IMG/VR virus record: IMGVR_UViG_3300015610_002171
DNA: 64,000 nt
Direction: 5' to 3' (one strand)
Origin: an uncultured virus (IMG/VR IMGVR_UViG_3300015610_002171)
Taxonomy: Duplodnaviria; Heunggongvirae; Uroviricota; Caudoviricetes
The number at the start of each line of letters is the position of its first letter. The stretch's first letter is position 1. The translations under genes and the position numbers were made by a program. The notes beneath the pieces are model-generated. The model saw only the letters and a program-made list of their open reading frames with translations. It ran no database searches and was not told where the DNA came from. Below, one piece after another: positions 9,475-63,354 of the stretch.

Positions 9475-9517
9475 AGCGCGGGTTGCGCTGCGGATAATGC
9501 CTGATTAAAATTGACTC

Positions 9518-9955: not shown

Positions 9956-9961
9956 TGTAAA

Positions 9962-10645
9962 ATGGAAAAGCTTATGGTGACAGACTTAAGAGATGTTTCA
10001 AAAGATTTCACAGGGATTGCGGAATATCCAAACAGAGACAAGTATTGGTACAAAGAAGGTTTCCATCATCGAGAAGATGGACCAGCTGTTGAATTGGCAG
10101 ATGGAACCAAATATTGGTATAAAGAAGGAAAACGACATAGAATAGATGGTCCCGCTGTTGAACGTTCAGACGGAACCAAATATTGGTGTAAAGAAGGACG
10201 ATTTCATCGTATAGATGGGCCAGCGGTCGAACATGTGAATGGAACCATATCTTGGTTTGTTGAAGGAAAACTTCATCGAGAAAATAATCCAGCTATGGAA
10301 TATGCAGATGGGTCAAAATATTGGTACAAAGAAGGGTATTTGCATAGATTGGACGGTCCTGCTGTTGAATTGGCGGACGGAACCAAATCTTGGTGGATTG
10401 AAGGTGCCTGCCACCGAGAAGACGGTCCCGCGTACGAAGACGCAGATGGAACCAAATTTTGGTATATCCATGGGAAATTAATGGATACCGACAATGAAAT
10501 AGAAATTGTAAATTTTCTCGGAATAGAAAAAATGTTTGGGTTTGAATGGATGAGGTTTCAAACTGAAAAAAAAGAAATTAAAAGAATTCCAATTGTTTCA
10601 AAACTAAAATATGCGTTACTAATATCAACAAAAAAAGAAGCGTAA
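9962..10645 (+). CDS. HRxDGPA-repeat family protein (6 repeats)
   Basis: Six consecutive repeats. Confidence 0.85.
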   Translation: MEKLMVTDLRDVSKDFTGIAEYPNRDKYWYKEGFHHREDGPAVELADGTKYWYKEGKRHRIDGPAVERSDGTKYWCKEGRFHRIDGPAVEHVNGTISWFVEGKLHRENNPAMEYADGSKYWYKEGYLHRLDGPAVELADGTKSWWIEGACHREDGPAYEDADGTKFWYIHGKLMDTDNEIEIVNFLGIEKMFGFEWMRFQTEKKEIKRIPIVSKLKYALLISTKKEA

Positions 10646-10651
10646 TATAAA

Positions 10652-11146
10652 ATGGAAAAACTTGTGGCAGCAGACTCAAGGGATATTCCAAAAGACTTCA
10701 CAGGTATTGCAGAATTTTCAAATAAATTAAAACATTGGTACAAAGAAGGAAAACTGCATCGAGAAGATGGTCCCGCTTGTGAATATCCAAACGGAGATAA
10801 ATATTGGTATAAAGAAGGATCTATTCACAGAGAAGACGGCCCAGCAGTTGAGCACGAGGATGGAAGAAAAGAATGGTGGGTTTGTAACCATCGCCATAGA
10901 TTAGACGGACCTGCGATTATTAATCCCTATGGAATAAAAGAATTTTGGATTGATGGAGTTCGATATTATGAAATAATTGATATTACAAACAAACTCTTTC
11001 TTGGAAAAGAAAAAGGGAAATATGATCTTGATTGGCTAAAGTTTCTAACCGAACAAGGAATTAAAGAATATCCTATTATTTCTGGAATGAAATATGAATT
11101 TAGTAAAAAATATACCCTTGAAGAGTTAATTTCTACAGAAAAGTAA
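10652..11146 (+). CDS. HRxDGPA-repeat family protein (3 repeats)
   Basis: Family motifs. Confidence 0.85.
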   Translation: MEKLVAADSRDIPKDFTGIAEFSNKLKHWYKEGKLHREDGPACEYPNGDKYWYKEGSIHREDGPAVEHEDGRKEWWVCNHRHRLDGPAIINPYGIKEFWIDGVRYYEIIDITNKLFLGKEKGKYDLDWLKFLTEQGIKEYPIISGMKYEFSKKYTLEELISTEK

Positions 11147-11150
11147 AGAA

Positions 11151-11579
11151 ATGAAACCAGATAAGGTAATAAAAATAAACAACTATTTAGAAGTTCCTAA
11201 TGATTTCACAGGAATTGCAGAATATTCAAACAAATTAAAACAATGGTATAAAGAAGGAAAACTGCATCGAGAAAATGGTCCAGCTGTTGAATTAGAAAGA
11301 GGACAAAAAGAATGGTGGATCGAAGGAAAAAGGCACAGAACAGATGGTCCTGCAAGAGAATATTCAAATGGAGAAAAAGAGTGGTGGGTTGATGGGAAAA
11401 AATTTTTTGAAGAGATTGATATTACAAACAAACTTTCTCTTAAAAAAGAAAAGGGTAAATATGGTCTTGAGTGGATAAAGTTTTTAACAGAAGAAGGTAT
11501 TGAAGAATTTCCAATTATTTCTGGAATGAATTATAGGTTAATACGAATTTATTCTGTAAACGAATACTTTTCTTTATGA
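11151..11579 (+). CDS. HRxDGPA-repeat family protein
   Basis: Family motifs. Confidence 0.85.
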   Translation: MKPDKVIKINNYLEVPNDFTGIAEYSNKLKQWYKEGKLHRENGPAVELERGQKEWWIEGKRHRTDGPAREYSNGEKEWWVDGKKFFEEIDITNKLSLKKEKGKYGLEWIKFLTEEGIEEFPIISGMNYRLIRIYSVNEYFSL

Positions 11580-11591
11580 AAAGAAAATAAG

Positions 11592-12041
11592 ATGATGAAA
11601 ACAATAACGTTAAGCAATAGTATTCAACTTCCATATAATTTTACAGGAAGTGTTGAGTATTTAAATATTTCCAAATGTTGGTATAAAAAAGGAAAACTAC
11701 ATCGAGAAGATGGTCCCGCTGTTGAATTGGTAAGAGGGCAAAAAGAATGGTATAAAGAAGGAAAACTCCATAGAATTGATGGTCCCGCTGTTGAGTGGGG
11801 ACTTGTAACCGCCGAATGGTGGATCGACGGGGAACAGTTAGTTTCGACAATTGATATAACAGGAAAACTCTTTCTTGGAAAAGAAAAAGGTAAATATGGT
11901 CTTGAATGGTTAAGGTTTTTAACAGATCAAGGTATTGAAGAGGTTCCAATTGTTCCTGGTTTTAAACAAACTTTAGTTCAATATTCTTCAATAGAAGAAT
12001 ATGTTTCACATAACAAAAGGATAAAAAATGAAAATGAATAA
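11592..12041 (+). CDS. HRxDGPA-repeat family protein
   Basis: Family motifs. Confidence 0.85.
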   Translation: MMKTITLSNSIQLPYNFTGSVEYLNISKCWYKKGKLHREDGPAVELVRGQKEWYKEGKLHRIDGPAVEWGLVTAEWWIDGEQLVSTIDITGKLFLGKEKGKYGLEWLRFLTDQGIEEVPIVPGFKQTLVQYSSIEEYVSHNKRIKNENE

Positions 12042-22562: not shown

Positions 22563-22919
22563 CTACTGGACAGCATCCAAATACTCTTTAAGAAGTTCCG
22601 TTTCAATCATCCCAGGAATAATTGGGAACTCTTTAATTCCTTGGTCTGTTAAGAACAATAACCATTCAAGGTTGTAGTTTCCATTTTCTTTCTTTCCAAG
22701 GTATATTGAGGTTTCAATTAAAGATTCAAGCTGAGTTAGGGAATAAGATTTATCGTCGATCCACCATTGTTTGCATCCATTGAATAATTCAATAGCTGGT
22801 CCATCTTCTCGACCAAATTTTCCTTTTTTATACCAAAATTTATCCCCATTTGGATATTCTGCAATTCCTGTAAAATCTTTAGGAACTTCAAGCCATATTT
22901 TTACTTTTATGGTTTTCAT
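22563..22919 (-). CDS. HRxDGPA-repeat family protein (1 repeat)
   Basis: Family N- and C-terminal motifs. Confidence 0.85.
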   Translation of the reverse strand: MKTIKVKIWLEVPKDFTGIAEYPNGDKFWYKKGKFGREDGPAIELFNGCKQWWIDDKSYSLTQLESLIETSIYLGKKENGNYNLEWLLFLTDQGIKEFPIIPGMIETELLKEYLDAVQ

Positions 22920-23584
22920 TATTTGATTACAGGCAAAGATTTTCTTTTTGCTCCGTGGGCTTCAAATCCAATGACTGCATTTAAAGATTTGAGTTTTTTA
23001 TCATTCCAACATAATTTACATTTTTCACATGTTATATTTTCGTGGGTTTGATTTGGACATGGAATTAATTTAAATCCGTGAAATTCATATGCTTTTTTGG
23101 ATAAAAAATTTCGAACAACAATTGCAGGAGCGTATCCTTTTCTTCTTGCAAGTTTCAATTCGTTTACGTTATCAACCGAAGCTAAAACAGATACCGTTCC
23201 CCAACTAGATCTTGCTACAGTTTTCCAGGCATGAGTATAAGACCATACTTTATGTCCCCATTCTTTTGTTGCATTAGAAACCATTTTAGCTGCTTCATTT
23301 GTGCGACAATCTCCAGCAACGTGGATTCTTAAAGGTTTCGTATTTTTTTCTTCTTTAATTGCTTTTTTAATTAACTTTGCTTCCTCTGAGGCAACTTGTT
23401 TCGGGGTGGCTTTCTTTTTATTTAATTTCGAAGTGTGAATCCCAACAAATCCCATCTGAGCATAACAACCATTGTCTTTTAAAGAACAGTCTGTTGGACA
23501 ACTTGATTCTATTGATGAATAAGTTGCGGCAACATTACCAAGTTTTGAATTTGATGTTTTTAAAACTAAAATCGCATTTGTCAT
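22919..23584 (-). CDS. Gp88-like Cys-rich (Fe-S) phage protein
   Basis: SNSKLG, CPxxCxxxxxxCYA, RIHVAGD, YTH, CP..CxxCxxC. Confidence 0.65.
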   Translation of the reverse strand: MTNAILVLKTSNSKLGNVAATYSSIESSCPTDCSLKDNGCYAQMGFVGIHTSKLNKKKATPKQVASEEAKLIKKAIKEEKNTKPLRIHVAGDCRTNEAAKMVSNATKEWGHKVWSYTHAWKTVARSSWGTVSVLASVDNVNELKLARRKGYAPAIVVRNFLSKKAYEFHGFKLIPCPNQTHENITCEKCKLCWNDKKLKSLNAVIGFEAHGAKRKSLPVIK

Positions 23585-23643
23585 TTTTTATTTGTGTTAT
23601 TCTCCTTGTTTATTTTCCATGAAGTCGGCACCATTCTTTATAG

Positions 23644-23867
23644 TGAATTCTCCACGATCAGAAAACTTATATGGGATGAATACGATTCATTTTTTTGTAA
23701 CATTCCTTAAACCGAAGTAGTATAATGTTTAATATCAAAGTTTAAGAAACTAAGATTTCTTAAATTCATCTCCAAACTTAGGGGCAGGGTGCCGTCAATC
23801 ACCCAAACGCGAACAATAAGAAATTATTATTTGCAAGCTCATAACATAAAAGCTTTGAGTAGTTGAC
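23644..23867 (+). mobile_element. Non-autonomous IS200/IS605-type element, family A copy 1
   Basis: LE-like GAATTCTCCA..GGGATGAAT, RE-like CAAGC..GAGTAGTTGAC; inverted homologue at 63136-63345. Confidence 0.7.
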
Positions 23868-23996
23868 AGTGAGACTTTTCGATTAACTGAATCTTACCTT
23901 TAGTTTCTTTTGATAATAAAAGTTTATATCCTTCAAATACATTTTTTGCTTGAAGCTGAGAGTCCAGTTTGTCGTTTATAACAACGATGAATGTCT

Positions 23997-24362
23997 TCAT
24001 TCTGTTATTCCAAGGTTATTGAGAAGAGCTTGAAAAAACGAACCGTCAGAAGTCATTCCTGGAATAATAGGAAATTCTTCAATGCTTTCTTCGGTTAAAA
24101 ACCTTAACCAATCAAGGTCATATTTGCCTTTCTGTTTTCCAATATAAATTGCTCTAACTGTTAACCGAAACAGTTCGTATTTTTGCAAATATTTTCCTTC
24201 AATATACCAAAGATTGCTTCCATCACGGCATTCAATTGCAGGACCGTCTGTTCTGTGTATTATTCCTTCGAATAACCATTTTTTTGTTCCAGATGGAAAT
24301 TCAACAATTCCTGTGAAACCATTTGGAATTTCGTGATGTAAATTTATTTTTATTGTTTTCAT
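23997..24362 (-). CDS. HRxDGPA-repeat family protein
   Basis: Family motifs. Confidence 0.85.
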   Translation of the reverse strand: MKTIKINLHHEIPNGFTGIVEFPSGTKKWLFEGIIHRTDGPAIECRDGSNLWYIEGKYLQKYELFRLTVRAIYIGKQKGKYDLDWLRFLTEESIEEFPIIPGMTSDGSFFQALLNNLGITE

Positions 24363-24418
24363 GGTTTCATTTCTAAATGAGATAAGAATATTAATATCAT
24401 TTTAATAAATTAATTTGA

Positions 24419-24757
24419 TTAATTGACAGTCCATTCTTCTCTGTAAGGCCGTCCTTCTTTATACCATACTCTTGATCCATTTGGATATTCTACAACTGGA
24501 CCATCTTCTCGGTGAAGTTTTCCATCAATAAAATAAAATTTGGTTCCATCAGCGCATTCAATTGCAGGACCGTTCAATCGATGATGTTTTCCTTCTTTGT
24601 ACCAGTTTTTTGTTCCATTTGCAGCTTCAACTGCTGGGCCGTCTTCTCGGTGAAGTTTCCCTTCTTTATACCAACGTCTTTCTCCGTCGATAAATTTAAC
24701 AATTCCTGTGAAGTCTTTTGGAATTTCCGAGATGTGATTTATATCGAGTGTTTTCAT
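24419..24757 (-). CDS. HRxDGPA-repeat family protein lacking the C-terminal domain
   Basis: Repeats only. Confidence 0.8.
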   Translation of the reverse strand: MKTLDINHISEIPKDFTGIVKFIDGERRWYKEGKLHREDGPAVEAANGTKNWYKEGKHHRLNGPAIECADGTKFYFIDGKLHREDGPVVEYPNGSRVWYKEGRPYREEWTVN

Positions 24758-24853
24758 TTTGATTTCATTCCTTTGGTTGACTTGTTGGTTTAGTCCTTTT
24801 GATATCTTAACGAGGCGACTCTAATCAGCCCAGCAGAGTTGATTTTATTGTTT

Positions 24854-25216
24854 TCATCGATTTGTTCTAAGTTTTTCAAATAAGAGTTTGAAGTTTTTAT
24901 CTAATTCCATTCCAGGAATAATAGGAAATTTTTCAATACCTTGAGGTGTTAAGAACGTTAACCATTCAAGATTATGTTTGCCTTTTTCTTTTCCAAGATA
25001 AATTGATGTTTTAACTAAAACATCAATTTTAATAAACAAATACCACCGATCATCAACCCACCATTCTTTTTTTCCATTTACTTTTTCAACTGCTGGGCCA
25101 CCTTCTCGGTGAAGTTTTCCTTCTTTAAACCAATGTTTATTTCCATTTGGATATTCTGCGATTCCTGTGAAGTTATCAGGAACGTCACCCCATGATATTA
25201 CTTTGATTGTTTCCAT
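24854..25216 (-). CDS. HRxDGPA-repeat family protein
   Basis: Family motifs; start at METIKV. Confidence 0.8.
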   Translation of the reverse strand: METIKVISWGDVPDNFTGIAEYPNGNKHWFKEGKLHREGGPAVEKVNGKKEWWVDDRWYLFIKIDVLVKTSIYLGKEKGKHNLEWLTFLTPQGIEKFPIIPGMELDKNFKLLFEKLRTNR

Positions 25217-25220
25217 GGGT

Positions 25221-25727
25221 TTATTCTTCCTGAACAAATTTACCACATCGAAGGCATTCTTTAAATAAGACCAAATCGTAGTCATCTGTTATAGTTCTAT
25301 ACTTGCAACCAATATTTGAGCAAATGAATTTATATTTTATATGATTATATTCTAAATTTCTTATTTCAGAAATTCTATAAACATACCTAATTTCTGCTTC
25401 GTGTTCATCATCAATATTATTTGATGATAATTTAATATCGTCAGCTTTATATTCAAATTTTATAAATTTATATTTTTCTTCTCTTCCATTAAATTTAAAC
25501 AATTGAATAAACTGTGATTTCTCAAACTTTTTTGCAAACTCCCTTTTACAAATTTCACAGTTTTGAAAACTAAAAATAGTTTTTTGGTCTTGGTTTTCTA
25601 AAATATAAATTCCATTTGGAATTGTTTGTTTGCTAATTCTACAGCCAAACCATCTACAGAAAAAATTGGTTGATTCTGTAGATCTTGAAACAATAGATAA
25701 TTCATTTTTTCTATATGGAGTTTGCAT
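25221..25727 (-). CDS. hypothetical protein with FCRWFG motif
   Basis: Motif shared with the ORFs at 47487 and 47983. Confidence 0.6.
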   Translation of the reverse strand: MQTPYRKNELSIVSRSTESTNFFCRWFGCRISKQTIPNGIYILENQDQKTIFSFQNCEICKREFAKKFEKSQFIQLFKFNGREEKYKFIKFEYKADDIKLSSNNIDDEHEAEIRYVYRISEIRNLEYNHIKYKFICSNIGCKYRTITDDYDLVLFKECLRCGKFVQEE

Positions 25728-36473: not shown

Positions 36474-39065
36474 ATGAAAACAAAAAAAGTGGCAACCGCC
36501 AAAGGTACACCTGGGTTTTCTTTATTAGATGCGTTTTTAAAAACGATAAAACTCGACAAAGACGAGACAGCGATAGACATTACACAAAATCCAGAAAAAC
36601 TTGTTGGTTTCACTGGATGGAAGAAAATAAAATTAGTTAATAATCCAGAAAAAGAAGCTTATTTCTATTTCAAAAAAGGCATACCGTCAGCGCCATTAGA
36701 TTCTTTTACAAAAGAGTTTGCCAAAAATTTGTCAAACTTGGTTGACAAGAATAAGTTTAAAAAAAACTTATCAGCTTTTCTTTGCCTAGATAATTGTGAA
36801 GTTTTGTTTTCAGACGAATCAACAGAAATAATAGTTAACACACTAACTTCGAATGAAAACATCCGCGAAATTTCTTTTACAAAAGACGGTAAAATAGCAT
36901 TTTATGCAGATGAATATGCAAATTATAGTGGCAAAAAATTTCTCGCTGACAAAGCTGACTCAACCTTCGAGTTCATCGAAAAACTCTTTAAAAAAGAGAA
37001 AGCCGAAAAAATTGAAAAAGAAACTAAAGGAAAAATTGTTGAAGTAAACAGTTATGATGAATTAAGTGTAAAAAGTAATTTTACAGGGGTTTTAAAACTA
37101 CCCATAGGAAAAAGTTGGAACTATTCTGGTTACAAAGAACTTCATTATAAAAATGGAGATTATCACCGTTTAAATGGTCCTGCAATAGAATTATACGATG
37201 GGACCAAAGAATGGTATAAAGAAGGACAAAGACATAGAACAGATGGTCCTGCAATTGAGCGCACAAACGGAAGAAAAGAATGGTGGGCCGAAGGAAACCG
37301 TCATAGACTAGATGGTCCTGCAATTGAGTGGTCAAACGGGGGCAAAGAATGGTATATTGAAGGTAAATTCTTTTCGCAAGAAAAAGAATTTAAGGCTGCT
37401 GTAAAGAAGTATCTTGAACTCGAAAAACTGGTAAAAGAAACCAAGGCAAAATTAAGTTCTAAGCTTAGTTCATCAAAGGATACAAAACTAATTTCTGAAA
37501 AAAACACAAACTTGAAAGAAGTCGTAAAAGAAAACTCGCCAAAAGACTTGGCAATAACTGCCAACTTTCCAAGTTTAAAAGAAGTTGAGCCTAATTTTTC
37601 TGGCAAAGCCACTGTTGGGGGCGTTCCTTGTCATTTCACAAACGGATTGCTTCACAATGAAATTGGACCTGCGGTCGAATCTGAACTTGTAGAAAGAAAT
37701 TACGCAATCAATGGAATTGTAATGACAAAAGCTGAGTTCTTAAACTTTAAGAGTTTTGAAACTCGATTTAGAGGAGAAACCCCAGAATTTCTTTTAAATA
37801 CTTTAAAAGCAACTAAATCTGTAGAAAAAATTAAACTTAACGGACTTCCTGAATTTGAAGTCGATATATATTCTGTTGGTAACAAAGATTGGTGCTTTTC
37901 GCCTCAATTGATCAATGGGAAATTTTCTGACAGAAAAATACTTACATCGATAGAACTGTATGACAAAGATGGACTTTCGCACTCTAGACAAGCGCCTGCA
38001 ATCATAGACCGTTTTAAAGGATACATGTATTGTGTACATGGAATGATGTACCCATCATCAGAAGAATGGTCTAAAGCCATTAATGGAGAGTTTAAAGAAC
38101 TTAAAAAACTTTACAGAGAAGCGATTGTTTTTGAAGATTTGATAAAGTCGTTAGAACATGTTAAGGAATACTCAGAAAATGAGTTCTTTAAAAATAAAGT
38201 TGGTACTGGGTATGTTTTACGAACCAAAACAATTGATTCTAAAAAACTCGACCAAGTTATTATTTTAAAAGATGGCAACTATCTAGCAAGATTTGTATTT
38301 GTCGATGGTGTTTTAGAAGCTTTTGTTAGATTTAACGGCTCCGCGTTATATCATGCTGATAACGGACCTGCTATCATGGATAATATTTCGGGAACATATG
38401 ATATGGAATTATTTCCAGGTTTTTATGTTGATGGCAAATATTTGAGTATTGATGAATATGAAAAGAAATATAGATTCGATCATCCTAGCAAGATAATAAA
38501 AGATCTTTTATCTGAAATTAACATTGTTCCAAAAAAAGAAGTAGAAGAAACTACTATAACAGAAGAAGTGGTAGAAAAAACCGCAATAAAAACGGTAATA
38601 AACACGATAAAATCAGACTCCAGGGAAGTTGCAAAAAGGCTTGCCGCAAAGAAGATTTCTGATTTCTCTCAAAACATGTTGATAACCATATTGGAAACAG
38701 CTGCGGCAAAAAATAAAAACTTCGAAAAACTCAAAGATTTTTTGAAGTCTTCAAAAGGTAATATTTTGATCAAATTCTTTTCTGGGATTTCAATAGACTT
38801 GTTAAAAGATAAACTTGATCCAAAATATAAAGATCTTTTATTGGAAATAGCATCTGAATTCAGAATTCAATCTGAGACAGATTTGTCGATTGAAATAATT
38901 GATCTTGTTCAAGGGTTGGTGTCTAATATAGACATTCTTTCAAATCTTTCTTCTTTTGAAGAAAAAATCAGAGTTCAAGTTTCAAACTTTGAAACATTAC
39001 CAACTCCAACTCAAGAATTAGAAATAGAATCCAACAACATACCTTCCGCGAAATATGTAAATTAA
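36474..39065 (+). CDS. Large multidomain protein with HRxDGPA repeats
   Basis: Three intact and several degenerate repeats within 863 aa. Confidence 0.8.
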   Translation: MKTKKVATAKGTPGFSLLDAFLKTIKLDKDETAIDITQNPEKLVGFTGWKKIKLVNNPEKEAYFYFKKGIPSAPLDSFTKEFAKNLSNLVDKNKFKKNLSAFLCLDNCEVLFSDESTEIIVNTLTSNENIREISFTKDGKIAFYADEYANYSGKKFLADKADSTFEFIEKLFKKEKAEKIEKETKGKIVEVNSYDELSVKSNFTGVLKLPIGKSWNYSGYKELHYKNGDYHRLNGPAIELYDGTKEWYKEGQRHRTDGPAIERTNGRKEWWAEGNRHRLDGPAIEWSNGGKEWYIEGKFFSQEKEFKAAVKKYLELEKLVKETKAKLSSKLSSSKDTKLISEKNTNLKEVVKENSPKDLAITANFPSLKEVEPNFSGKATVGGVPCHFTNGLLHNEIGPAVESELVERNYAINGIVMTKAEFLNFKSFETRFRGETPEFLLNTLKATKSVEKIKLNGLPEFEVDIYSVGNKDWCFSPQLINGKFSDRKILTSIELYDKDGLSHSRQAPAIIDRFKGYMYCVHGMMYPSSEEWSKAINGEFKELKKLYREAIVFEDLIKSLEHVKEYSENEFFKNKVGTGYVLRTKTIDSKKLDQVIILKDGNYLARFVFVDGVLEAFVRFNGSALYHADNGPAIMDNISGTYDMELFPGFYVDGKYLSIDEYEKKYRFDHPSKIIKDLLSEINIVPKKEVEETTITEEVVEKTAIKTVINTIKSDSREVAKRLAAKKISDFSQNMLITILETAAAKNKNFEKLKDFLKSSKGNILIKFFSGISIDLLKDKLDPKYKDLLLEIASEFRIQSETDLSIEIIDLVQGLVSNIDILSNLSSFEEKIRVQVSNFETLPTPTQELEIESNNIPSAKYVN

Positions 39066-42181: not shown

Positions 42182-43126
42182 ATGTCAACCGAAGTTCATG
42201 TGATGCCTCCTGTTGTTGGTGCGTTAAAATCGGCAATTGAATTTGAAAATCAAGCAAGAACTCCCTGGAGAGGGATTATTCCTGCCCAAAAAGAGTTTTT
42301 AACAGAAACATATTTTCCTTACATGGAAAAAAAGTTTTTGTCTTTGTTTTCTCCCGACGAAATGAAATATATTGCCTCCTTTTCGGCAGATGAAATAAAT
42401 AAGTTTCTAGAAGAGAACAAGTTTTCAATTCGACTTGATCCATTTACTTCCGAAACAGATTTTGGGGCAGCTTCGGTAATGGATATATCTGTCAAATGGG
42501 TTGAAGAAGCCGAACGAACAACAATGTTCGTAGATAAAAATGGCAAAGAAACAAACTATCCAGCGATCAAAATTAAAGACTATTTTGAAACTTTTATGAT
42601 TGACGGAATTCAGTTTGCAGAGATTCATTTAAAATACGAATCAAAAGATCGAATGATTTTGGCGAAAGGACCATTTAACAGCCAAACGGCTAAGAATCCG
42701 CTAAAACTGTATTCAAAAACATTAGTAACAAACAAAGATAAGAAAACGAGAAATGGATTTTCTTCTCTTGTAATTCCAAAAATTAATCTTGACTGTGAAT
42801 CTGACTTATCATTCCTTTTAGGAATGCAGTTCGATGGAGTGGTTTCTTCAACACAAGAACCTGCGACGTTTTGTGTCTCTCAAGCCCTCCAACAAACAAA
42901 GTTTAAATTAAATGAGTTTGGCGCAAGAGCAAGGTCTGCGGCTGCGGTTGCAGTATTACGCTGCGCAACAGTTCGCAAAGAAATGGTTCCCCCATTAGTG
43001 TTTGATGAACCATTTATGTTATGGTTGATAAGAACAGATGAGAAAACAGGGGACGAGGTTGTTTATTTTGCCTCTTATCTTGATATTGATGTTTGGAAAG
43101 AGTCTGGTTCTCTAGACGATATGTGA
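42182..43126 (+). CDS. Serpin-like protein
   Basis: IPKINL, QQTKFKLNEFGARARSAAAVAV hinge/RCL, FDEPFMLWL serpin signature. Confidence 0.7.
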   Translation: MSTEVHVMPPVVGALKSAIEFENQARTPWRGIIPAQKEFLTETYFPYMEKKFLSLFSPDEMKYIASFSADEINKFLEENKFSIRLDPFTSETDFGAASVMDISVKWVEEAERTTMFVDKNGKETNYPAIKIKDYFETFMIDGIQFAEIHLKYESKDRMILAKGPFNSQTAKNPLKLYSKTLVTNKDKKTRNGFSSLVIPKINLDCESDLSFLLGMQFDGVVSSTQEPATFCVSQALQQTKFKLNEFGARARSAAAVAVLRCATVRKEMVPPLVFDEPFMLWLIRTDEKTGDEVVYFASYLDIDVWKESGSLDDM

Positions 43127-45475: not shown

Positions 45476-46420
45476 ATGAACATAACATACACAAAATCAA
45501 AAAGTTCTATCAACGTCAACATAGACGGAGAATCTTTTATTATCTTAAATTCTGACGGAATGTATTCTGCTTTGGCAGAGGCTATTAAAAACCAAGATAT
45601 GGAAGCTATAAAGAATGCAACAAGCATTGCTCACTTTATGAAAACCAAAAGTGAAGGAATGTTGGATCTTATAGATGGAGAAGTTTTTTTGGATGGAAAA
45701 CCAATCCACGGATCTTTGGGACAAAGATTTGTTGAATTTATCAACGCTCAAATTGAAATAACTCCTCTTATTAACTTTTGCCGCAAATTAAGAAAAAATC
45801 CATCTGTTTCCTCAATTGACCAACTCTTCGGTTTTTTGGATGCGAACAAGCACCCAATTACAAAAGATGGTAATTTCATTGCTTATAAAAAAATAAGAAA
45901 CGATTTTAAAGACTTCCACAGCGGGACATTTGATAATAGTCCTGGCAAAGTATTAGAAATGCCAAGAAGTCTCGTTAACGAAGATCCAACTCAAACGTGT
46001 TCTACTGGATTACACGTTGCAAACTGGAGCTACGCATTTAACTCTTTTCATGGCGGCTCTGGAATAATGGTCGAAGTAGAAGTTGATCCCGCAGACGTGG
46101 TTGCCGTTCCAATTGATTACAATCAAGGCAAAATGAGAACCTGTCGTTATAAGGTTGTAAAAGTTATCAACACCCCACGACAAGAAAAACTTGTTGTTGA
46201 CGGAGAAAGAATTATGGCATCGGGTCCAGAAGAAAAAGAAGAAACACAACAAGAATATTGCCCAAGCTGTGATGGAATTTTTGATGTTGATCCTGTTTCT
46301 GGAGAACTTTTATGTGACTGTGACGAAGAAGAATATGATGAAGACGAAGAAGATTGTGACGAATGTCCAGAATGCGGCGAAGAAGGCTGCGACGGAGAGT
46401 GTGAAGACGAAAATTATTAA
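45476..46420 (+). CDS. rIIB: RIIB-like protein
   Basis: NPS..QLFGFL..PIT.DGNFIAYK..D.HSG..CSTGLHV..VAVPIDY..KMRTCRY. Confidence 0.9.
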   Translation: MNITYTKSKSSINVNIDGESFIILNSDGMYSALAEAIKNQDMEAIKNATSIAHFMKTKSEGMLDLIDGEVFLDGKPIHGSLGQRFVEFINAQIEITPLINFCRKLRKNPSVSSIDQLFGFLDANKHPITKDGNFIAYKKIRNDFKDFHSGTFDNSPGKVLEMPRSLVNEDPTQTCSTGLHVANWSYAFNSFHGGSGIMVEVEVDPADVVAVPIDYNQGKMRTCRYKVVKVINTPRQEKLVVDGERIMASGPEEKEETQQEYCPSCDGIFDVDPVSGELLCDCDEEEYDEDEEDCDECPECGEEGCDGECEDENY

Positions 46421-46696
46421 GTTTTTGGCAAGAAACTTGCCAACTATAATTTAAATAAATTCATTGTTAATAGTTTTTCTGTAACATTCCTTAAGCTGAA
46501 GTTATATTATGTTTAATATAAAACCACGAAGCAAGGGTTAAAGATTGCTTCATCGGCGGGAACCGCCGATTACGAACGTGGAGAGGATATAAAACTAAAG
46601 CTTTCGAAAGAAAGAAATGTTGTTCTTGAAGAAGCGTTTAAAATTCAAGAAAGAAATTTCTTGAGGCTTATGAATTTTAGTTCGCAAGTAGTTCAC
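46418..46696 (+). mobile_element. Non-autonomous IS200/IS605-type element with TnpB reRNA-like right end, family B copy 1
   Basis: CGGGAACCGCCGATTACGAACGTGGAGAG..GAAGCG..GTAGTTCAC; inverted homologue at 50403-50680. Confidence 0.75.
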
Positions 46697-46715
46697 ATTT
46701 TAAACAAAAGAAATT

Positions 46716-46736
46716 GCCACCTTTCGGTGGTTTTTT
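46716..46736 (+). terminator. Intrinsic terminator
   Basis: GCCACC-TTTC-GGTGGT followed by a T-run. Confidence 0.75.
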
Positions 46737-47076
46737 CGTTTCTGGCAACCAAAAAATAAAAAGAGGAAAAAATGGCAACGAAAACACAGCACGTTTGCGA
46801 CAAGTGTGGGACAAATATCGATTCAGATAACGGGTTTATTGAGCTTCAAATCCAAGCAATGAATTTAAATATTCTAAAACAGGATGTGTGCAAACCATGC
46901 TTGCTCAAAATATTAAAAATAGAACCAGAAACAAGAACAGAATATATTTATGAGTCTTCCGATAAGCACGGCGGACCGACAGGGCCGATGCCCCCGCCAG
47001 AATTGGAGAATAATTCTGATTCATCTTTCGAGCCTCTGCGCGGTCCTGCCGTCGCCGCAAAACTGGCAAACCTCCG

Positions 47077-47490
47077 ATGAACGAAATCTTTGAAGTTAAT
47101 TTAAAAGAATTTGTTCCATTAAACAAACTTATTCAAGTTTTAACTCTGATTAAATCAAGATACTATAATGAAGAAGTTTATTTGGTTGGAAGTATTTTAA
47201 CTTCTCCATCTCCAAGGGATATTGATGTTGTTATTGCAATAGAAGATAGATTGTTCGAGGCAATGTATGGAAGTTCACTTTCAAAAAACGAAACCGTTGA
47301 CACTTGGATTGCGGCAATAAAAGGCTGGAATAAAAATCTTTCCCCTGTCATGGTGTCTTATTGGCAAAAAGATATTGCGAAACAAGGAAAGGAATTAACT
47401 ATGATGTGCGGTTTGCAAGTGGACTTCAAAACTCAACCAGTTAAACTTTTCAACTCCATTCCTCTAGAAAAACATAGGCTTGAGATATGA
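47077..47490 (+). CDS. Minimal nucleotidyltransferase (Pol-beta family)
   Basis: YLVGS..PRDIDVV..VDF. Confidence 0.75.
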   Translation: MNEIFEVNLKEFVPLNKLIQVLTLIKSRYYNEEVYLVGSILTSPSPRDIDVVIAIEDRLFEAMYGSSLSKNETVDTWIAAIKGWNKNLSPVMVSYWQKDIAKQGKELTMMCGLQVDFKTQPVKLFNSIPLEKHRLEI

Positions 47491-47990
47491 CCTATAGAGA
47501 AAACATGAATACTGAATTAGTTTTGAAAACTCCAAAGTTTAATATTTTTTGTAAATTATTTGGACATAAACCAAAAATAACACATGATGAAACTGCCAAC
47601 ATATATTGGCTTGATACTTGTTGCGTGGTTTATGATTGTGTAGACGAAGCATATTATAAAATTGCTGAAAAAACCACATGTTTACGTTGTAACCAAATTT
47701 ATTATACTGCTCACTTTGAACGTCTCGTTTACTATAAAAAAACAAATAAATTTGGATATCGCGTCTTTTATTCTCTTTCCAAAGAAGATGAGCAGATACT
47801 CTATAACAACTCTGTTGAATTAACTTCCTTTTCTGAAATTAAAGAATTTTTAGAAACCAACGGATTTCAAAAAAAGAAAAGACCGTGGAGAAGCTATGAT
47901 ATAATTTATGTTATGTTAAAAAACAAAGAACATTTTAAAATTTGTAAAAATACCTTTCTCTTAAAAAAGAGGTCAGATTTTAATGTATAG
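47487..47990 (+). CDS. hypothetical protein with CKLFGHK motif
   Basis: CxLFGHK..CxRC. Confidence 0.6.
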   Translation: MTYRENMNTELVLKTPKFNIFCKLFGHKPKITHDETANIYWLDTCCVVYDCVDEAYYKIAEKTTCLRCNQIYYTAHFERLVYYKKTNKFGYRVFYSLSKEDEQILYNNSVELTSFSEIKEFLETNGFQKKKRPWRSYDIIYVMLKNKEHFKICKNTFLLKKRSDFNV

Positions 47991-48582
47991 AGAAACACCG
48001 ACGAAGGACTTGGTTCCAGTGTCCAAAAAACAAAAAGAAAAAATAAGTTTTATGTGTCGTTTGTTTGGACACAAACCAGCTTGGGAAATGCCTGTTAGTG
48101 TTTACTTGTTAAAAATCCATCAAAACAATTCATGGAAATATAGAATAGATACACATTATACACTTGAGGTTGATAATAAACCTATTACAAGGTATGTCTC
48201 ACCAGGAATTTCATCTTTTTGCGGAAGGTGTGATAGAGTTGTTTTTATTCCTATCACAGAATTAACTTATGTTGACTTTGAAATAGGGAAACACGGAGAA
48301 ATGTGGAGGTTGATGAAATCAGACCATACTTTATGGTTTGGTCTTAAAGACTATCAAGAAAATCTTACCAGAATTTATGTTAGAGATTACATTAATATAA
48401 AGGAAAATATTCTCCTCTCCGTAGAGGAGTGTCAAGCGCTAATTCCAAAGCCAGTTGCCCGTCAGTGGTTTGGTGGTAAACAATATGTTTTAGTTGAAGA
48501 AAGTATTTCTCATGAAGAAGATCTTTTCTTTAATTTAAAAACTTTGCAGTTTAAAAGAATAAACAAAAAACCCGCAACCTGA
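47983..48582 (+). CDS. hypothetical protein with CRLFGHK motif
   Basis: CxLFGHK..CxRC. Confidence 0.6.
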   Translation: MYRETPTKDLVPVSKKQKEKISFMCRLFGHKPAWEMPVSVYLLKIHQNNSWKYRIDTHYTLEVDNKPITRYVSPGISSFCGRCDRVVFIPITELTYVDFEIGKHGEMWRLMKSDHTLWFGLKDYQENLTRIYVRDYINIKENILLSVEECQALIPKPVARQWFGGKQYVLVEESISHEEDLFFNLKTLQFKRINKKPAT

Positions 48583-48602
48583 AACAAAAGGAAACAATAA
48601 AA

Positions 48603-50081
48603 ATGTCAACAAGACCAGTCCAAAAAATAAAATACTATCGAAGAGGATTTGCAACAAACAGTTCAAGCTCTCATTCTGTTTTATTATTTGAAGAAGATAT
48701 TAAGTCTTTGATTCAAGACTATGACCCTTGCAACGGTGAATATGGCTGGGGAGACTTCTCTCTTGTTTCCAAAGAATCGAAGATTAAATACCTAAAAGCG
48801 CAGATTGCTTCAGTATGGAGAAATACCACAAAACTACCAGAAGATTATGCAGACTATTATGTTGACCACCAATCTATTTGGGGTATTCTACCTGTTCCAA
48901 ATGAACTAGGAACAGAACCGCATCCAAAGTGGTTTAAAATATACGAAGATTGGATTTCTAATGATAAAATTGTTGTTTATGGCGGCAATGATAATGAAGA
49001 GCCATCTTTAACGCCGCCAACAAATACTAACTACAATCCAGTTTGTGCACCAAATTCGAAATCAAGAAGTAACTATGCCCCGTACAATCAGCCTGTTAAT
49101 TATATTGGACGACATGTAGAAGATGGAGATTATTTTTTAATGTTCGATACCATATCAGGTACAAAACTTAAAGTGAAGTTCTCCGAAGGGGAACTTCCGA
49201 ATAGTTCAGAGTATCCTGAACTTGTTGATTTAAAAATCACAGACTATTGCCCTTTTAATTGTGAATACTGTTATCAAGGGTCAACAACAAAAGGCAAGCA
49301 CGCCAAACTTGAAGCCATCAAAAAAACAATCGATATTTTAGCGGAGGCAAAGACACTGGAAATTGCAATCGGTGGTGGAGAACCAACACTCCATCCTGAT
49401 TTTCTTGAGATATTAAGATACGCAAAACAAAAAGGTGTTGTTCCAAACTTTACATCCAAAAACTATAAGATTTTAACAAACAGAGAAGCAGTTGAGACAA
49501 TTTTAGAATGCTGTGGTGCATTTGCATTTTCTGTTGATTCGGCAGAAGATGTAAAACAGATTTCATATTATCAAATGTATGCATCAAATATGTGTGACAT
49601 TAAACTAGAGCGAATTACACAAAAAACTGTAATTCAACATCCAGTAGGATCTTGTTCGAAAGAAGAATTTAAAAAAATCCTTACTCAAATTGGTTCACTA
49701 GAAGTGTCAAATGTTTTAACTTTACTTGGACACAAGACAACAGGTAGAGGAAATAAATCTTTGGTAAAAGCATCAAACGAAGATGTTTTACTTGCAGTAA
49801 GACTTCATAAAGTAAAAAACGCACGAGACCAACTGTTTATTAATGTTGATACATCGTTTGTAAAAGATCAAGAAAGAGAAATACGGACAATTCTTGGAAA
49901 TAATGTTTATGAAGCTACGATGTCTTCAAAAGATGGATTAACAAGTGTTTATGTTGATGCAGTAGAAGAAACTATTTCTGCTAGTTCTTACGAGCCTGAA
50001 CGCGGCCACCATAACATGAAACCTCTATATGGAAACCTTGAGGAGTTCCTTTCAACATGGAAGACTATACAAAAAAGCTAA
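48603..50081 (+). CDS. Radical SAM enzyme with N-terminal RxGFxTNSSS domain
   Basis: CPFNCEYC, GGGEPTLH; N-terminal RRGFATNSSSSHS. Confidence 0.9.
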   Translation: MSTRPVQKIKYYRRGFATNSSSSHSVLLFEEDIKSLIQDYDPCNGEYGWGDFSLVSKESKIKYLKAQIASVWRNTTKLPEDYADYYVDHQSIWGILPVPNELGTEPHPKWFKIYEDWISNDKIVVYGGNDNEEPSLTPPTNTNYNPVCAPNSKSRSNYAPYNQPVNYIGRHVEDGDYFLMFDTISGTKLKVKFSEGELPNSSEYPELVDLKITDYCPFNCEYCYQGSTTKGKHAKLEAIKKTIDILAEAKTLEIAIGGGEPTLHPDFLEILRYAKQKGVVPNFTSKNYKILTNREAVETILECCGAFAFSVDSAEDVKQISYYQMYASNMCDIKLERITQKTVIQHPVGSCSKEEFKKILTQIGSLEVSNVLTLLGHKTTGRGNKSLVKASNEDVLLAVRLHKVKNARDQLFINVDTSFVKDQEREIRTILGNNVYEATMSSKDGLTSVYVDAVEETISASSYEPERGHHNMKPLYGNLEEFLSTWKTIQKS

Positions 50082-50402
50082 ACAAAGCTAAAGAGATAGC
50101 GGCCAAAGGTTCAATAGATTTAAAAATTACCGAGGCAATACTAAAAAAGTTTTACTTGGTTGGAAGGTCTTTGTTTGATTACGATAATCTAAACTACATC
50201 ACAGGTGCTAAACCCATATACGGAATTTCTTCATCAAGTTTGTTAGACCTAAAAACTCAATATCAACCTTCTTCTAAAATACCTTATCACTCTCTAATTT
50301 TAGAATCTCAATTTTTAGACGAAGAAATATTAGAACTTAAACTCTTAACAGAAGATGGTATTATATATATGGCTTTATCGGTCGACAAAATATTTTACTT
50401 TA

Positions 50403-50680
50403 GTGAACTACTCGTGAACTACTCATAAACTTTAGTTCATGAGCCTCAAGAAATTTCTTTCTTGAATTTTAAACGCTTCTTCGAGAATAACATTTCCAAT
50501 TTAATGGTTTTAGATTTATAAACTCTCCACGTTCGTAATCGGCGGTTCCCGCCGATGAAGCAATCTTTAACCCTTGCTTCGTGGGTTTATATTAAACATT
50601 ATACTACTTCGGTTTAAGGAATGTTATGAAAAAATTATTAATATTTAATTATGGTTGGCGAGTTTTTTGTCAAAAACTTA
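50403..50680 (-). mobile_element. Non-autonomous IS200/IS605-type element, family B copy 2
   Basis: Reverse-complement homologue of 46418-46696; terminal GAGTAGTTCAC tandemly duplicated. Confidence 0.75.
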
Positions 50681-50897
50681 GTAAGAAATTATTTCATATC
50701 ATATTATTTCGAAAACAAACGAGTGAAAAAAAGTTGTTGACAGCCCCGCGGGGCGACTTAAACTGTAGGGACAAGAGACGCGGAGACAAACTCTCTCAAA
50801 GTAAAAAAGGAAATCAAAATGAAAGTTAACGGCTATAAACTAAGTTATTTCAATAGTTTAGTGTCGACCTGACATATACTCTTAATAAGAGTATTTA

Positions 50898-51983
50898 TTA
50901 TGATACCCTTGCTTTTAAGGGTAGATTTAATCGGGGTGCCAGAGTGTAGAAAACACTTTCTCCCGTCTTGAGAACCTTATCATTCTTCTCAAGATTGGAA
51001 CTTGGTACAATACTAAAACATTCTTTTAAAGAAATGTTAAAAGCAGCATTGGCATCAGAATGTTCCAAATGCCCGCAAGAGCATTTATAAATTTTTCCTT
51101 TTCGGTTTTCTTTGTTTATTTGTTTACATTGAAAACAAGATTGAGATGTGAAAGCAGGATCAACTATTTCAAGTTTAACACCAAGCAAAAGACTTTTGTA
51201 TTTTAACAGCCTTCTAATTTCATAAAAGGGCCAAGAGTTCAAGGTGTGATTGCTTTCTGATTTATATTTTTTTAAATTATGTTTAGATATTCCTTTAAGA
51301 TTTTCAATTTTTAACCCACAATTTGTTTTAACTGCTTCTTTTACAATTTTTGTTGTAATTTTTTGAAGAATATCTTTTGTTTTATTTCTTTCTTTTTTTG
51401 ATTGTTTTGCAATGAGTTTTAAATTACCATTTATTTGATTTTTTCTCCTTAAATTTTTATATTTCTTTTTCAAGAACGGAATTTCTTTTCCATATTTTTT
51501 AACATTTCCCGTTAAAGAATTTGCAGTCACAATTGTATTTGAAGTAGAATTTAAATCAATTCCAATCCATGATTTAGGTTTTTACTCTGCTTTGTTTGTG
51601 CAAGTTGCTGTAATGTATGCGTATTTTTTATCAAGTTCAATTTGATTTATTTTCTCAACCTTTGAGAGATCAAACCAAAGATTTTTTATCTCAATTTTTA
51701 AAGGTACTATTTTTATCAATTTCTTTTTTTTATCGAACTTAATATCTTGACCAGGGACGGTCAATTTGACTTTGTTTGTGTTAATAGATTTTAATTTTTT
51801 TTGTGAATGATATTTTCGAAGAATTTGATTTGAAATTACAGACTTTAATTTAAATTCTTTTACATCTTTAGAAGTTGGAAGTTTTTTGTTTCGGCAAGAT
51901 ATTGCGTATATGGCTACTTTAATAGCCTTCTCTAATTCAAGATCTAATTTTGCGAAATGTTTGATTTTAAATGTTAAAATCAT
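50898..51983 (-). pseudogene. tnpB: TnpB (IS200/IS605 OrfB) split by one in-frame TAA
   Basis: ..KAE*KPKSWIGIDLN.. is in frame; RuvC D/E/D and zinc finger retained. Confidence 0.85.
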
Positions 51984-53513: not shown

Positions 53514-53585
53514 TACAAGGCCATGAAGAAACTTACTTCTAAAAATTCAAAGGGTGAAAAACTAGTTTCTTCGCTTTCCTTGTAT
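53513..53585 (+). ncRNA. GGCCAT/GCTTTCC hairpin RNA, copy 2
   Basis: Same motif as copy 1. Confidence 0.7.
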
Positions 53586-56617: not shown

Positions 56618-56688
56618 AAACAGGCCATAAAGAAACTTACTTCTAAAAATTCAAGGTATGATAATCTAGTTTCTTTGCTTTCCTGTTT
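56618..56688 (+). ncRNA. GGCCAT/GCTTTCC hairpin RNA, copy 3
   Basis: Same motif as copy 1. Confidence 0.7.
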
Positions 56689-56955: not shown

Positions 56956-57224
56956 AAAGGTAAAAATGAACATACTTGGAATAAAAACACTTTTCTATAA
57001 AGGGAAAGAGTGGAAATTTGAATGGGGCTGCGGGGCCGACAACATACAAAACATTGAGTTAAAAGAATTAGAGTTTTGTCCAGATAAAATTGTTAAAGCA
57101 GAATGCTCGCAGTCGTATGGTTGCACAGGACAACCTCCATGTTTGCATAAAGGAATTATTGCAAAAAGAAGATCTGACAATAAAATGTTTTTAATTTGTG
57201 TTGAATAATAAACTATTTATCTTT

Positions 57225-57842
57225 ATGAAAATAAAGAATTTAATTTATGGGTCAGACTTAGACGAAGGAATCATAGCAAATTTATCAAACAAAATAAAAC
57301 AATCGTTCGGGTCGTCTGATAGTTCTTCTGAAAAACTAGTTACAGATCAAAACGGAGCAAAAGTTTTCGTAAAAGGAAAAAAGATTCACAGAGAAGGCGG
57401 TCCCGCAGTATTAGAAACAGATGGAACTCTTAAATGGATGGTAAATGGAAAATACCACAGAGAGGATGGCCCAGCAATTATTAGTCCAGACGGAACTGCA
57501 CATTGGATGATTAATGGAAAACACCATCGTGAGAATGGTCCAGCCTATGTTGGTTTTATTTCTGGTAGAAATTGGGAACTTAAATGGATTAAAAATGGAG
57601 TATTAAATAGATATCCAGAACCAGCGGTTGTAAGTTACGCAGATACTCCAGTTTTTTATTATAATGGTAAACGAGTTTCAAATTTAGAAGGTTTAAGAAC
57701 ATTAGAAAAAACTGGAGTAAAATGGGAAGCTGATGAAGATTATAAAAATTATGGACCTGGCGTAACAAAAAATTTATGGAATCAAGAATACGAAAATCAT
57801 AAAAGAGATTTTAGTGTTAAAGCTAGCAGTCCTTATAGATAA
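57225..57842 (+). CDS. HRxDGPA-repeat protein with different N- and C-termini
   Basis: HREGGPA/HREDGPA/HRENGPA repeats. Confidence 0.8.
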   Translation: MKIKNLIYGSDLDEGIIANLSNKIKQSFGSSDSSSEKLVTDQNGAKVFVKGKKIHREGGPAVLETDGTLKWMVNGKYHREDGPAIISPDGTAHWMINGKHHRENGPAYVGFISGRNWELKWIKNGVLNRYPEPAVVSYADTPVFYYNGKRVSNLEGLRTLEKTGVKWEADEDYKNYGPGVTKNLWNQEYENHKRDFSVKASSPYR

Positions 57843-58670: not shown

Positions 58671-58741
58671 GCCCTTTTAGTTCAACGGTAGAACGCTAGT
58701 TTCTAAAACTGGATGAATAGGTTCAATTCCTATAAAGGGCG
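58671..58741 (+). tRNA. Amber suppressor tRNA (CUA), tRNA-Trp-like body
   Basis: CTAGT-TTCTAAA-ACTGG, anticodon CTA at 58703-58705; G73. Confidence 0.8.
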
Positions 58742-59172
58742 CAAAATCAATGAAGTTTCAAGAATATGTGAAATACTCTAATTGGTTCTCAGGAAAGGCT
58801 GACTCTGATTTTGAGTTAAAATTTAAAATAAAAGAAATAAGCAACCTTTCTGCAGAAAAAGCATTTTTTAAAATTGACACACTTGGAGAAACACCAGAAA
58901 TTTCAAGTGCTGAAAAACAAAGTTTACTTTCGGCTTTAAAAGGTAAAGCTGCTTTTAACTTATGTATCAAACAAGTTTCTGAGCAAATTAAAATTGCTCA
59001 TAAAGAAAAATGGATTTGGATATTAGGAAACATTTCATTTGATGAAAAAATTAAAGATCTTATCTTGTATCAAGAAGTAATACAGAATTTATTAAATTGT
59101 GATAATCGACAACTTTTTTTGACAGCTTGGAAACAATCAAGAGTCGAAAATAATTTAAAGTAAAATAACAAA

Positions 59173-59197
59173 TGGAAGTGTGGCCGAGTGGTCTAAA
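59173..59197 (+). pseudogene. 5' fragment of a Ser/Leu-type tRNA abutting tnpB
   Basis: GGAAGTG-TG-GCCGAGTGGTCTAAAG matches a tRNA acceptor 5' strand and D-arm. Confidence 0.6.
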
Positions 59198-59204: not shown

Positions 59205-60374
59205 ATGATAATTAAATCTTTCAAATATAGATTATATCCAACAATCGAACAACAAAAAGTTTTTGAAGAATGGATTTTACAGTTGAAAAATTTGTGGAAC
59301 ATAGCAAACAAACAAAGATTTTGGATGCTAAGTAAAATTCCAATCCAAAAAAGTTCAAGAACGGGTTTTGAAATTTGGCCGTCAAATAGAAATCAAATAT
59401 GTAAAAGAACAGGAAATAAAATTTATGGTCAAGAATACGAGGCGCAAGAATTAGCAAGGTTAGATCCAAATGGAATAGGTATTTTACCAGCTAAAATAAG
59501 AAATTCTTGTCTAGAACAATTAGATAAATCCTGGAAAAGGTTTTATAAAAACGTATCCAAAAAACCAAAGTTTAAAACAAAAAAAGATAAAATTTCGTTT
59601 ACAATAAAAAGTAATTGCAATTCTTTGTTGAAAAACATTAATAATGGGAAAATTCAAATTATTAAACTTGGATTTGTTAAAGTCAAAATACATAGAAAAT
59701 TAGAAGGAAGACCATTATATTTTACAATTACAAAAGATTCAATAGGTGAATGGTATGTTTCTATTACTTGTGAAATAATAAATTTCATAAAAAAAGAATC
59801 TAATCAAATAATTGGAATTGATAGAGGTGTTAAAAACATTGTTGCAGATTCAAATGGAAAAATAATACCAAGTATTAAAATACTAGAAAAAAGTAAGTTA
59901 AAACTTAACAAATTGAGAAGAAAATTTTCAAAGCAGAAAAAAGGATCAGAAAATTCTAAAAAAACATTATTAAAAATAAATAAGTTAAACATTAAGCAAA
60001 TTAATAGAAGAAATGATTTTTATCATAAAATAACCAGTTATTATTCAAATAATAATTCAACTATTGTTCTTGAAGAATTGAAAATTAAAGAAATGACAAA
60101 AAAAGGTTCTAAAAAAACAAAACTTAATTCTTTAATAAGATCTTCTGCATGGAAATTATTAGAAAATCAATTTAAGTATAAGTTGAATTGGTATCAAAAA
60201 AATGGAAAATTAATATTAATTAAACCATATAATACTTCAAGAATTTGTTTTAAATGCAAATATTGCGAAAAAACTAATAGAAAAGAAGACGTTTTTAAAT
60301 GTTTAAAATGTGGGCATGAAGATCATGCCGATATAAATGCCGCAAAAAACATTTTGTTTTTTGGGACTAAATGA
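59205..60374 (+). CDS. tnpB: TnpB RNA-guided nuclease (IS1341-like, no tnpA in window)
   Basis: KSFKYRLYPT N-terminus, IGIDRG, IVLEEL, CxxC..CxxC, HADINAAKNI; catalytic D/E/D intact. Confidence 0.9.
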   Translation: MIIKSFKYRLYPTIEQQKVFEEWILQLKNLWNIANKQRFWMLSKIPIQKSSRTGFEIWPSNRNQICKRTGNKIYGQEYEAQELARLDPNGIGILPAKIRNSCLEQLDKSWKRFYKNVSKKPKFKTKKDKISFTIKSNCNSLLKNINNGKIQIIKLGFVKVKIHRKLEGRPLYFTITKDSIGEWYVSITCEIINFIKKESNQIIGIDRGVKNIVADSNGKIIPSIKILEKSKLKLNKLRRKFSKQKKGSENSKKTLLKINKLNIKQINRRNDFYHKITSYYSNNNSTIVLEELKIKEMTKKGSKKTKLNSLIRSSAWKLLENQFKYKLNWYQKNGKLILIKPYNTSRICFKCKYCEKTNRKEDVFKCLKCGHEDHADINAAKNILFFGTK

Positions 60375-63135: not shown

Positions 63136-63345
63136 ATCAACTGCTTATAGCATAAGCTTGCAAATAATAATTTCTTATTATTCACGTTTGGGGGATTGAC
63201 GGCACCCTGCCCCAAATACTAAGTTTGGGGATGAGTTTAAGAAACTAAGATTTCTTAAACTTTGATATTAAGTATTATATTATTTCGGTTCAAGGAATGT
63301 TACAAAAAAATGAATCGCACTCGCTTTCTGAGCATGGAGAATTCA
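63136..63345 (-). mobile_element. Non-autonomous IS200/IS605-type element, family A copy 2
   Basis: Reverse-complement homologue of 23644-23867. Confidence 0.7.
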
Positions 63346-63354
63346 AATAAAAAA

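Follow-up and report, generated by a model that had tools for sequence, protein, structure and literature searches.

The DNA analysed here, a stretch of 64,000 nucleotides from an uncultured virus of the Caudoviricetes (IMG/VR IMGVR_UViG_3300015610_002171; below, the window), carries two homologous elements on opposite strands, copy 1 at 46418-46696 (+, 279 bp) and copy 2 at 50414-50680 (−, 267 bp), which very probably are gene-less derivatives of IS200/IS605 transposons of the kind known as palindrome-associated transposable elements (PATEs). The stop codon of the gene at 45476-46420 is formed by the first three bases of copy 1. A search within the window aligned the two copies at 83% identity over 283 columns (E ~4e-81), which agrees with a preliminary description of this DNA that had reported two homologous elements of ~280 bp in opposite orientation; that description had drawn copy 2 as 50403-50680, an extent that includes too much, as the element proper covers 50414-50680 and positions 50403-50413 lie outside its right end. 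The DNA looks like that of a jumbo phage, because it contains a tRNA cluster and shares ~15 kb of synteny with a complete viral record of 390,884 bp that has terminal repeats (below, the relative), in which the gene preceding copy 1 is 81% identical.

Both copies have the same order of parts, namely an AT-rich 5′ part, a promoter-like block of ~50 nt, a structured core and the end GTAGTTCAC. The left-end region of copy 1 (46418-46473, +) forms an 8-bp hairpin (46425-46443) that is unlike the right-end hairpin and is not present in copy 2. The promoter-like block (46474-46523, +) is common to copies 1 and 2 and to two further cassettes described below; it is a putative promoter and occupies the position that the spacer between the left end and the tnpB start takes in related full-length elements. 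The −10-like core noted earlier is indeed there, matching the consensus at 10 of 12 positions in copy 2 and 9 of 12 in copy 1, but such a match alone is weak because the scanned region holds 37 of them against 22.4 expected. Beyond a deletion junction at ~46528 follow the last 49 codons of a tnpB gene (46529-46675, +), which constitute the omega-RNA scaffold, and KQGLKIASSAGTADYERG can be read in a single frame in both copies. A remnant of the TnpB C-terminus had been recognized before and is present; at 49 codons it is longer than originally quoted. Neither copy is long enough to encode a transposase or holds a protein gene, as only tnpB codons 356-404 are left, and a Pfam scan of the open frame of copy 1 returned no match. 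The right end of copy 1 (46664-46696, +) consists of an imperfect, decayed hairpin followed by the cleavage motif TAGTTCAC; copy 2 has the same subterminal hairpin and motif, and its hairpin is well paired. Both copies fold more stably than 200 of 200 shuffled sequences (z −4.40 for copy 1, −4.45 for copy 2). The two ends of each element are mutually unrelated, and the inverted repeat that was detected is one copy against the other; an identity as miniature inverted-repeat transposable elements was rejected as terminal inverted repeats are lacking.

Parentage of the two copies

Degenerate patterns of the structured core matched 32 loci, 24 of them 3′ ends of IS605-type tnpB genes or remnants thereof and eight chance matches in coding sequence, and 21 of the 24 tnpB-type ends terminate in TTCAC. 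When the read-through of copy 1 was compared with longer proteins, three matches were found among 18 candidates. The remnant is 88% identical over its 49 residues to positions 356-404 of protein P0002 and of P0004, a member of the same cluster; both are 404 aa long, score above the NCBIfam cut-off for IS200/IS605 TnpB (NF038281) and retain the RuvC acidic motifs. P0004 reaches 434.8 bits on NF038281 (cut-off 425) and 173.3 bits on NF038280 (cut-off 350), and derivation from IS607 was rejected because the latter score falls below the cut-off. The earlier view of these elements as TnpB right-end element RNA (reRNA)-like ends without their protein is thereby supported, with an intact 404-aa TnpB as the cognate protein.

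In a comparison with assembled contigs of four metagenomic runs from four studies, contigs leave the cassette into tnpB codons exactly at the deletion junction in at least three of the four runs (X16, X9 and X18). We therefore propose that an internal deletion of codons 1-355 of a 404-codon tnpB would have brought the left end and the promoter block next to the tail that encodes the omega-RNA and the right end. The scaffold keeps its helices in an alignment with the related elements L052, L053 and L067: both partners differ in 13 of 38 base pairs, and pairing holds in 88.5% of cells (five sequences from two lineages, with the structure taken from the same alignment), helices 1 and 2 being paired in 100% of cells.

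The parent TnpB is probably phage-borne and encoded by the same phage as the two copies, because P0004 shares its public metagenome-assembled genome (MAG) organism label and accession range with close homologues of six of ten window proteins, because it is found on a similar number of contigs, and because the tail of P0007, a full-length variant, is a mosaic of copy 1-type and copy 2-type sequence. Alternatively, P0004 may be located on a co-binned bacterial contig. A small protein fused to the tnpB tail in P0013 has no match in the window or the relative and therefore gives no placement of the parent. That the partner is one of the TnpB proteins of the window was not supported: the protein at 59205-60374 was rejected as cognate, being only 29% identical to the parent and having its own 3′ RNA, as was the tnpB at 50898-51983, which is split and of another type.

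Insertion sites and related elements

An empty site of copy 2, one of the checks suggested at the outset, was found on a contig of 6,923 nt from run X18, which skips from 50403 to 50682 with 13 other letters in between, so that copy 2 is polymorphic and absent from one strain. In run X16, which belongs to the same strain lineage, copy 2 is present, with a 2-base insertion exactly where 12 of these 13 letters are expected for a clean insertion after TTAT, and the clean-fill reading is deduced from this 2-base insertion. Comparison of the empty X18 allele with the filled X16 allele places TTAT at the insertion point and reveals no target duplication. The four letters 5′ of copy 2 (50681-50684, −) thus read TTAT in the empty allele and TTAC in the window. 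Copy 1 is preceded by TTAT (46414-46417, +), the presumed transposon-adjacent motif (TAM), just where the empty site of copy 2 places its TTAT, the boundary of copy 1 being set by homology; with the two further cassettes the motif is found at the copy 2 empty site and before three of the four elements as they stand in the window. The relative lacks any sequence like copy 1, copy 2 or the third cassette, and carries a single, unrelated tnpB. The preliminary suggestion of mobile miniature elements is borne out by the empty copy 2 site and the intact cognate TnpB. It is the parentage, the empty copy 2 site with TTAT and without target duplication, and the absence from the complete relative that make the PATE-type identity very probable.

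The third cassette (~23642-23867, +) is likewise gene-less and shares the promoter block; its left-end hairpin has collapsed, its TnpB RNA scaffold is of another kind, its end reads GTAGTTGAC, and its fold reaches a z of only −1.8. The fourth (~63136-63346, −) is a more decayed copy of the third type, 82% identical to it over 216 columns. Both follow TTTAT, and their boundaries are putative. A scan for the scaffold of the third type yielded five matches, all by chance, and no empty site of the third cassette was seen. At least three further right-end variants and at least one further left-end variant appear as loose ends in the same metagenomes.

Related elements, both full-length and gene-less, were found in two other phage contigs, and one of them (L052) is autonomous, with a divergent Y1 tnpA (NF033573). 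In five related ends (L051, L052, L067 and L068) TTAT stands 11-13 nt before AAAA and a left-end hairpin, which fits the IS608 rule that the target is chosen by a 4-nt guide 5′ of the hairpin (PMC3201880) and the TTTAT/TTCAC pair used by ISGst2 (10.1101/2023.03.14.532601). The same IS605 group also includes, on another phage contig, a gene-less element whose RNA scaffold is cut at the 5′ hairpin (L067, 1408-1612) and a terminal-only element of <50 nt (L068, ~1485-1532). No close DNA copy of the cassettes was found in annotated phages, plasmids, viral contigs, metagenomes or genomes; two viral-contig matches to the cassette query were rejected as chance matches in coding regions. Rfam at gathering thresholds reported only tRNAs in the window.

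Proposed activity and alternative explanations

Taken as a whole, we consider it likely that copies 1 and 2 are PATE-type, non-autonomous tnpB derivatives of the IS200/IS605 family residing in a jumbo phage. In the mechanism that we envisage a Y1 TnpA acting in trans would have put them in place. The cassette RNA, if made, would load the intact parent TnpB, whose gene lies at another locus, probably of the same phage. As the guide would be whatever follows TCAC, the natural target would be the element-free allele of the cassette's own locus in a co-infecting relative, and repair of the cut allele would copy the cassette, i.e. homing. That the two copies still guide TnpB is less certain than what they are, and we judge it about evenly balanced.

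Several observations weigh against this explanation. No left-end palindrome matching the right end is found in copy 1 or copy 2, unlike in L052 and L067, which makes present mobility by TnpA doubtful. Copy 2 is preceded by TTAC rather than TTAT in the window. A Y1 transposase was found neither among 95 scanned open reading frames (ORFs) of the window (17 plus 78 chosen from 185 stop-to-stop frames) nor in the 390,884-bp relative. No empty allele of copy 1 was seen, both of its junctions being present in four of four runs, and all 11 of 11 complete homologues of the gene upstream of copy 1 end at the same place; copy 1 thus looks fixed in the sampled population, with its right-end hairpin decaying. 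Nor is there an RNA-specific signal over the elements, since their extra depth also occurs in the DNA run and reflects summed copies; for the RNA-labelled runs each contig has a single depth value that adds up all copies, which is neutral on transcription.

These points bear most directly on the possibility that both copies are inert remnants, PATEs by origin that are no longer transcribed or loaded, whose pattern of presence and absence stems from past transposition and from ordinary recombination among phage strains. This agrees with our explanation on identity, differs from it on function, and is a tenable, if tentative, alternative. Besides the degenerate left-end palindromes, the decayed right-end hairpin of copy 1 and the extra depth in the DNA run, it would account for the rather even coverage of the genes of both strands in the RNA-labelled run, for a copy 1 target that is seemingly absent from the sampled population and for a lowest-energy fold in which the strand required for the long-range helix is taken up by bases 5′ of the junction. 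Against it speak the preservation, in two copies, of the promoter block together with the whole scaffold after the deletion, the helices of that scaffold, which are still paired (helices 1 and 2 completely), and the co-occurrence of an intact cognate TnpB.

Another possibility is that the cassettes are domesticated, stand-alone guide genes which, as a minimal phage CRISPR, direct a phage-encoded TnpB against the host or against competing phages that are unrelated. The putative guide of copy 1 (46697-46716, +), positioned by analogy with the ISDra2 reRNA, has no TTAT-adjacent match of at least 7 nt within the window; among 2.9 million viral contigs it has two exact matches over 20 nt, both of which lack TTAT, as do two 3-mismatch matches in the relative (control: one), so that the check for TAM-adjacent matches in other phages that had been suggested gave none in the window, these contigs or the relative. 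A 12-nt match of the flank beyond the copy 2 duplication, near 59156, was set aside because it lacks TTAT and is about what chance provides in AT-rich DNA. For copy 2, the guide is part of the native coding flank in the empty strain, and it varies from strain to strain. What speaks for domestication is that four cassettes have their own promoter block, that copy 1 occurs in all four sampled runs, and that 19 nt (46697-46715), as described before, separate the end of copy 1 from an intrinsic terminator-like hairpin and T-run (46716-46741, +). In the relative, however, the orthologue of the gene before copy 1 is directly followed by its own hairpin and T-run without an element (L004), which is why copy 1 most likely landed between the gene end and an existing terminator, and why the terminator most likely belongs to the upstream gene. 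A guide-sized gap with a terminator as a designed feature is thus not upheld, and we regard domestication as very unlikely.

Also very unlikely is that the inverted pair delimits a composite or invertible unit with the block from the nucleotidyltransferase to the radical-SAM gene as its content, a block that the two copies had been described as bracketing. The block is ordered differently in the relative, with both breakpoints near the two copies, and one low-depth X9 contig joins 46524 to 50586 on opposite strands. On the other hand, the block of the relative is permuted without a change of strand, not inverted, and the X9 joint, whose short side is only 73 letters long, is equally well accounted for by a further mosaic copy. 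The strain without copy 2 keeps the gene order of the window on a single contig, and therefore the pair delimits no cargo.

Alleles of copy 2

The duplicated end segment of copy 2 in the preliminary description proved to be an exact 11-nt tandem repeat (50403-50413 and 50414-50424) whose boundaries cannot be shifted. The outer unit (50403-50413, −) repeats the terminal 11 nt of the right end and would be the guide seed of copy 2 in the window strain. From the tails of the flanking protein in 61 contigs, three alleles of the locus were distinguished: the native end (18 contigs), which represents the empty or cleanly filled allele, a single-unit allele (6) and the duplicated allele of the window (37). 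The single-unit allele is deduced from protein tails rather than read as DNA, and in-silico removal of one 11-mer unit from the window reproduces its last 15 residues.

The last 30 nt of copy 2 contain a single TTAT; the duplicated unit starts immediately behind it and stops at TCAC, and such boundaries, after an internal TTTAT and up to TCAC, would be the expected product of transposase chemistry. A copy inserted at the TTTAT inside the right end of an earlier copy, followed by collapse, could have produced the 11-nt duplication and rewritten the guide of copy 2. The window guide matches the single-unit allele over 24 of 24 bases tested, behind TTTAT; the duplicated allele offers behind its own TTTAT only 11 contiguous matching bases (12/20). 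Any duplication of this kind would create the match to the single-unit allele, and what is informative is the starting point of the unit. The duplicated allele could accordingly be selfish to the second order, its rewritten guide cutting the single-unit predecessor during co-infection with TnpB supplied in trans, a proposal that we put forward as speculative and on balance improbable. If true, an allele changed by 11 bp would spread by its own drive through a jumbo-phage population, as it cuts its predecessor. The order may also have been the opposite, with the single-unit allele arising by collapse of the duplication. Among literature titles and abstracts we found no description of a cassette duplication that redirects the guide to its own predecessor.

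Other features of the window

At 46772-50428 the window has the same genes as the relative (L004, 8982-12139), in permuted order on the same strand. The gene at 47487-47990 is missing from the X16/X18 strain, where 47492 is joined to 47986 with 10 letters of microhomology. The tnpB at 50898-51983 (−) is split by a stop and frame change at ~51582, a break that is probably real because the X16 and X18 contigs show no indel there; it sits at the site of a 196-aa gene of the relative (L004, 12203-12793), the first codons of which remain at ~50819. A second, related tnpB lies in run X18 (record 17), ~3 kb upstream of 45318 in that strain.

Directly before the intact 389-aa TnpB at 59205-60374 (+) lies a segment (59173-59197) that we take to resemble the 5′ half of a tRNA; neither ARAGORN nor Rfam calls it a tRNA. 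The usual GTAGTTCAC end is absent from the 3′ RNA region of this gene, which may have entered a tRNA gene as a solo tnpB of the homing type. The window contains at least 12 tRNA genes, among them one with a CTA anticodon (58671-58742, +; amber suppressor-like, labelled Pyl by ARAGORN). Downstream of tRNA genes a 63-nt repeat occurs twice (53518-53580 and 56622-56684, 89% identical), and the tRNA region of the relative holds several homologues; a role as processing signal or small RNA is conceivable.

A paralogue family of >15 copies with a 23-aa (69-nt) repeat and an HREDGPA-like motif extends over 672-12041, 22563-25285, 36474-39065 and 57198-57842, and Pfam gave no match for two ORFs with this repeat. 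The phage protein at 42182-43126 (+) has a weak serpin match (PF00079, 28.8 bits, cut-off 27) and is conserved in the relative. A 9-nt repeat is found in about eight tandem units at 39-137.

Comparison with known systems

Gene-less omega-RNA cassettes, known from bacterial chromosomes, would thus populate jumbo phages too. Co-infection mixes phage strains and would supply empty alleles, which makes homing with a borrowed nuclease a realistic route of spread. With three alleles of one locus (native, single-unit and duplicated) and an intact TnpB with a predicted TTAT, the role of stand-alone omega-RNAs becomes testable. The two copies point to no new defence or regulatory system. Guide RNAs derived from TnpB are also used by the nuclease-dead TnpB repressors (TldR); P0004, in contrast, keeps its RuvC acidic motifs, and the guides of copies 1 and 2 vary with the insertion site. 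Some TldR loci are reportedly phage-borne as well.

In the ISDra2 system the TnpB reRNA comprises the tnpB 3′ end and the right end, with a ~16-nt guide from the flank (PMC8612924); there the proteins are encoded in cis and the motif is TTGAT, whereas in copies 1 and 2 the protein is deleted and the motif is TTAT. The stand-alone omega-RNAs of the obligate mobile element-guided activity (OMEGA) systems are reported to be active in trans, their biological role being stated as unknown (PMC10691335). They resemble our copies as mobilized RNA loci without effector or transposase beside effector-bearing loci; the guides of our copies, in contrast, can be traced to the insertion flank. In homing as reviewed in PMC13565253, a nuclease cuts the element-free allele in a co-infecting genome and repair copies the element, a process demonstrated for IS605 in plasmids and listed for co-infecting phages. 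Compared with non-restorative or intronless homing, the nuclease would here come from another locus, and the guide of copy 2 matches a presumably earlier cassette allele rather than the empty site.

The closest relatives in kind are the PATEs themselves. By definition these are IS605 derivatives that carry no gene, have palindromes near their ends and lack both terminal inverted repeats and target duplication (PMC3119063); in Geobacillus they often encode omega-RNAs that need TnpB in trans (Meers et al., 10.1101/2023.03.14.532601). Copies 1 and 2 share with the Geobacillus elements the absence of genes, the IS605 right end, the retained omega-RNA, the lack of terminal inverted repeats and, at copy 2, of target duplication, and the TTTAT/TTCAC pair of ISGst2, and TnpA and TnpB would likewise be needed in trans. 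They differ in residing in a jumbo phage rather than a chromosome, in their degenerate left-end palindrome, in an extra hairpin before the right-end hairpin (as in L052-type parents) and in that two scaffold families share a single promoter block. PATEs bearing omega-RNAs have therefore already been described, and what copies 1 and 2 add is the phage setting and an allele whose guide matches its presumed predecessor.

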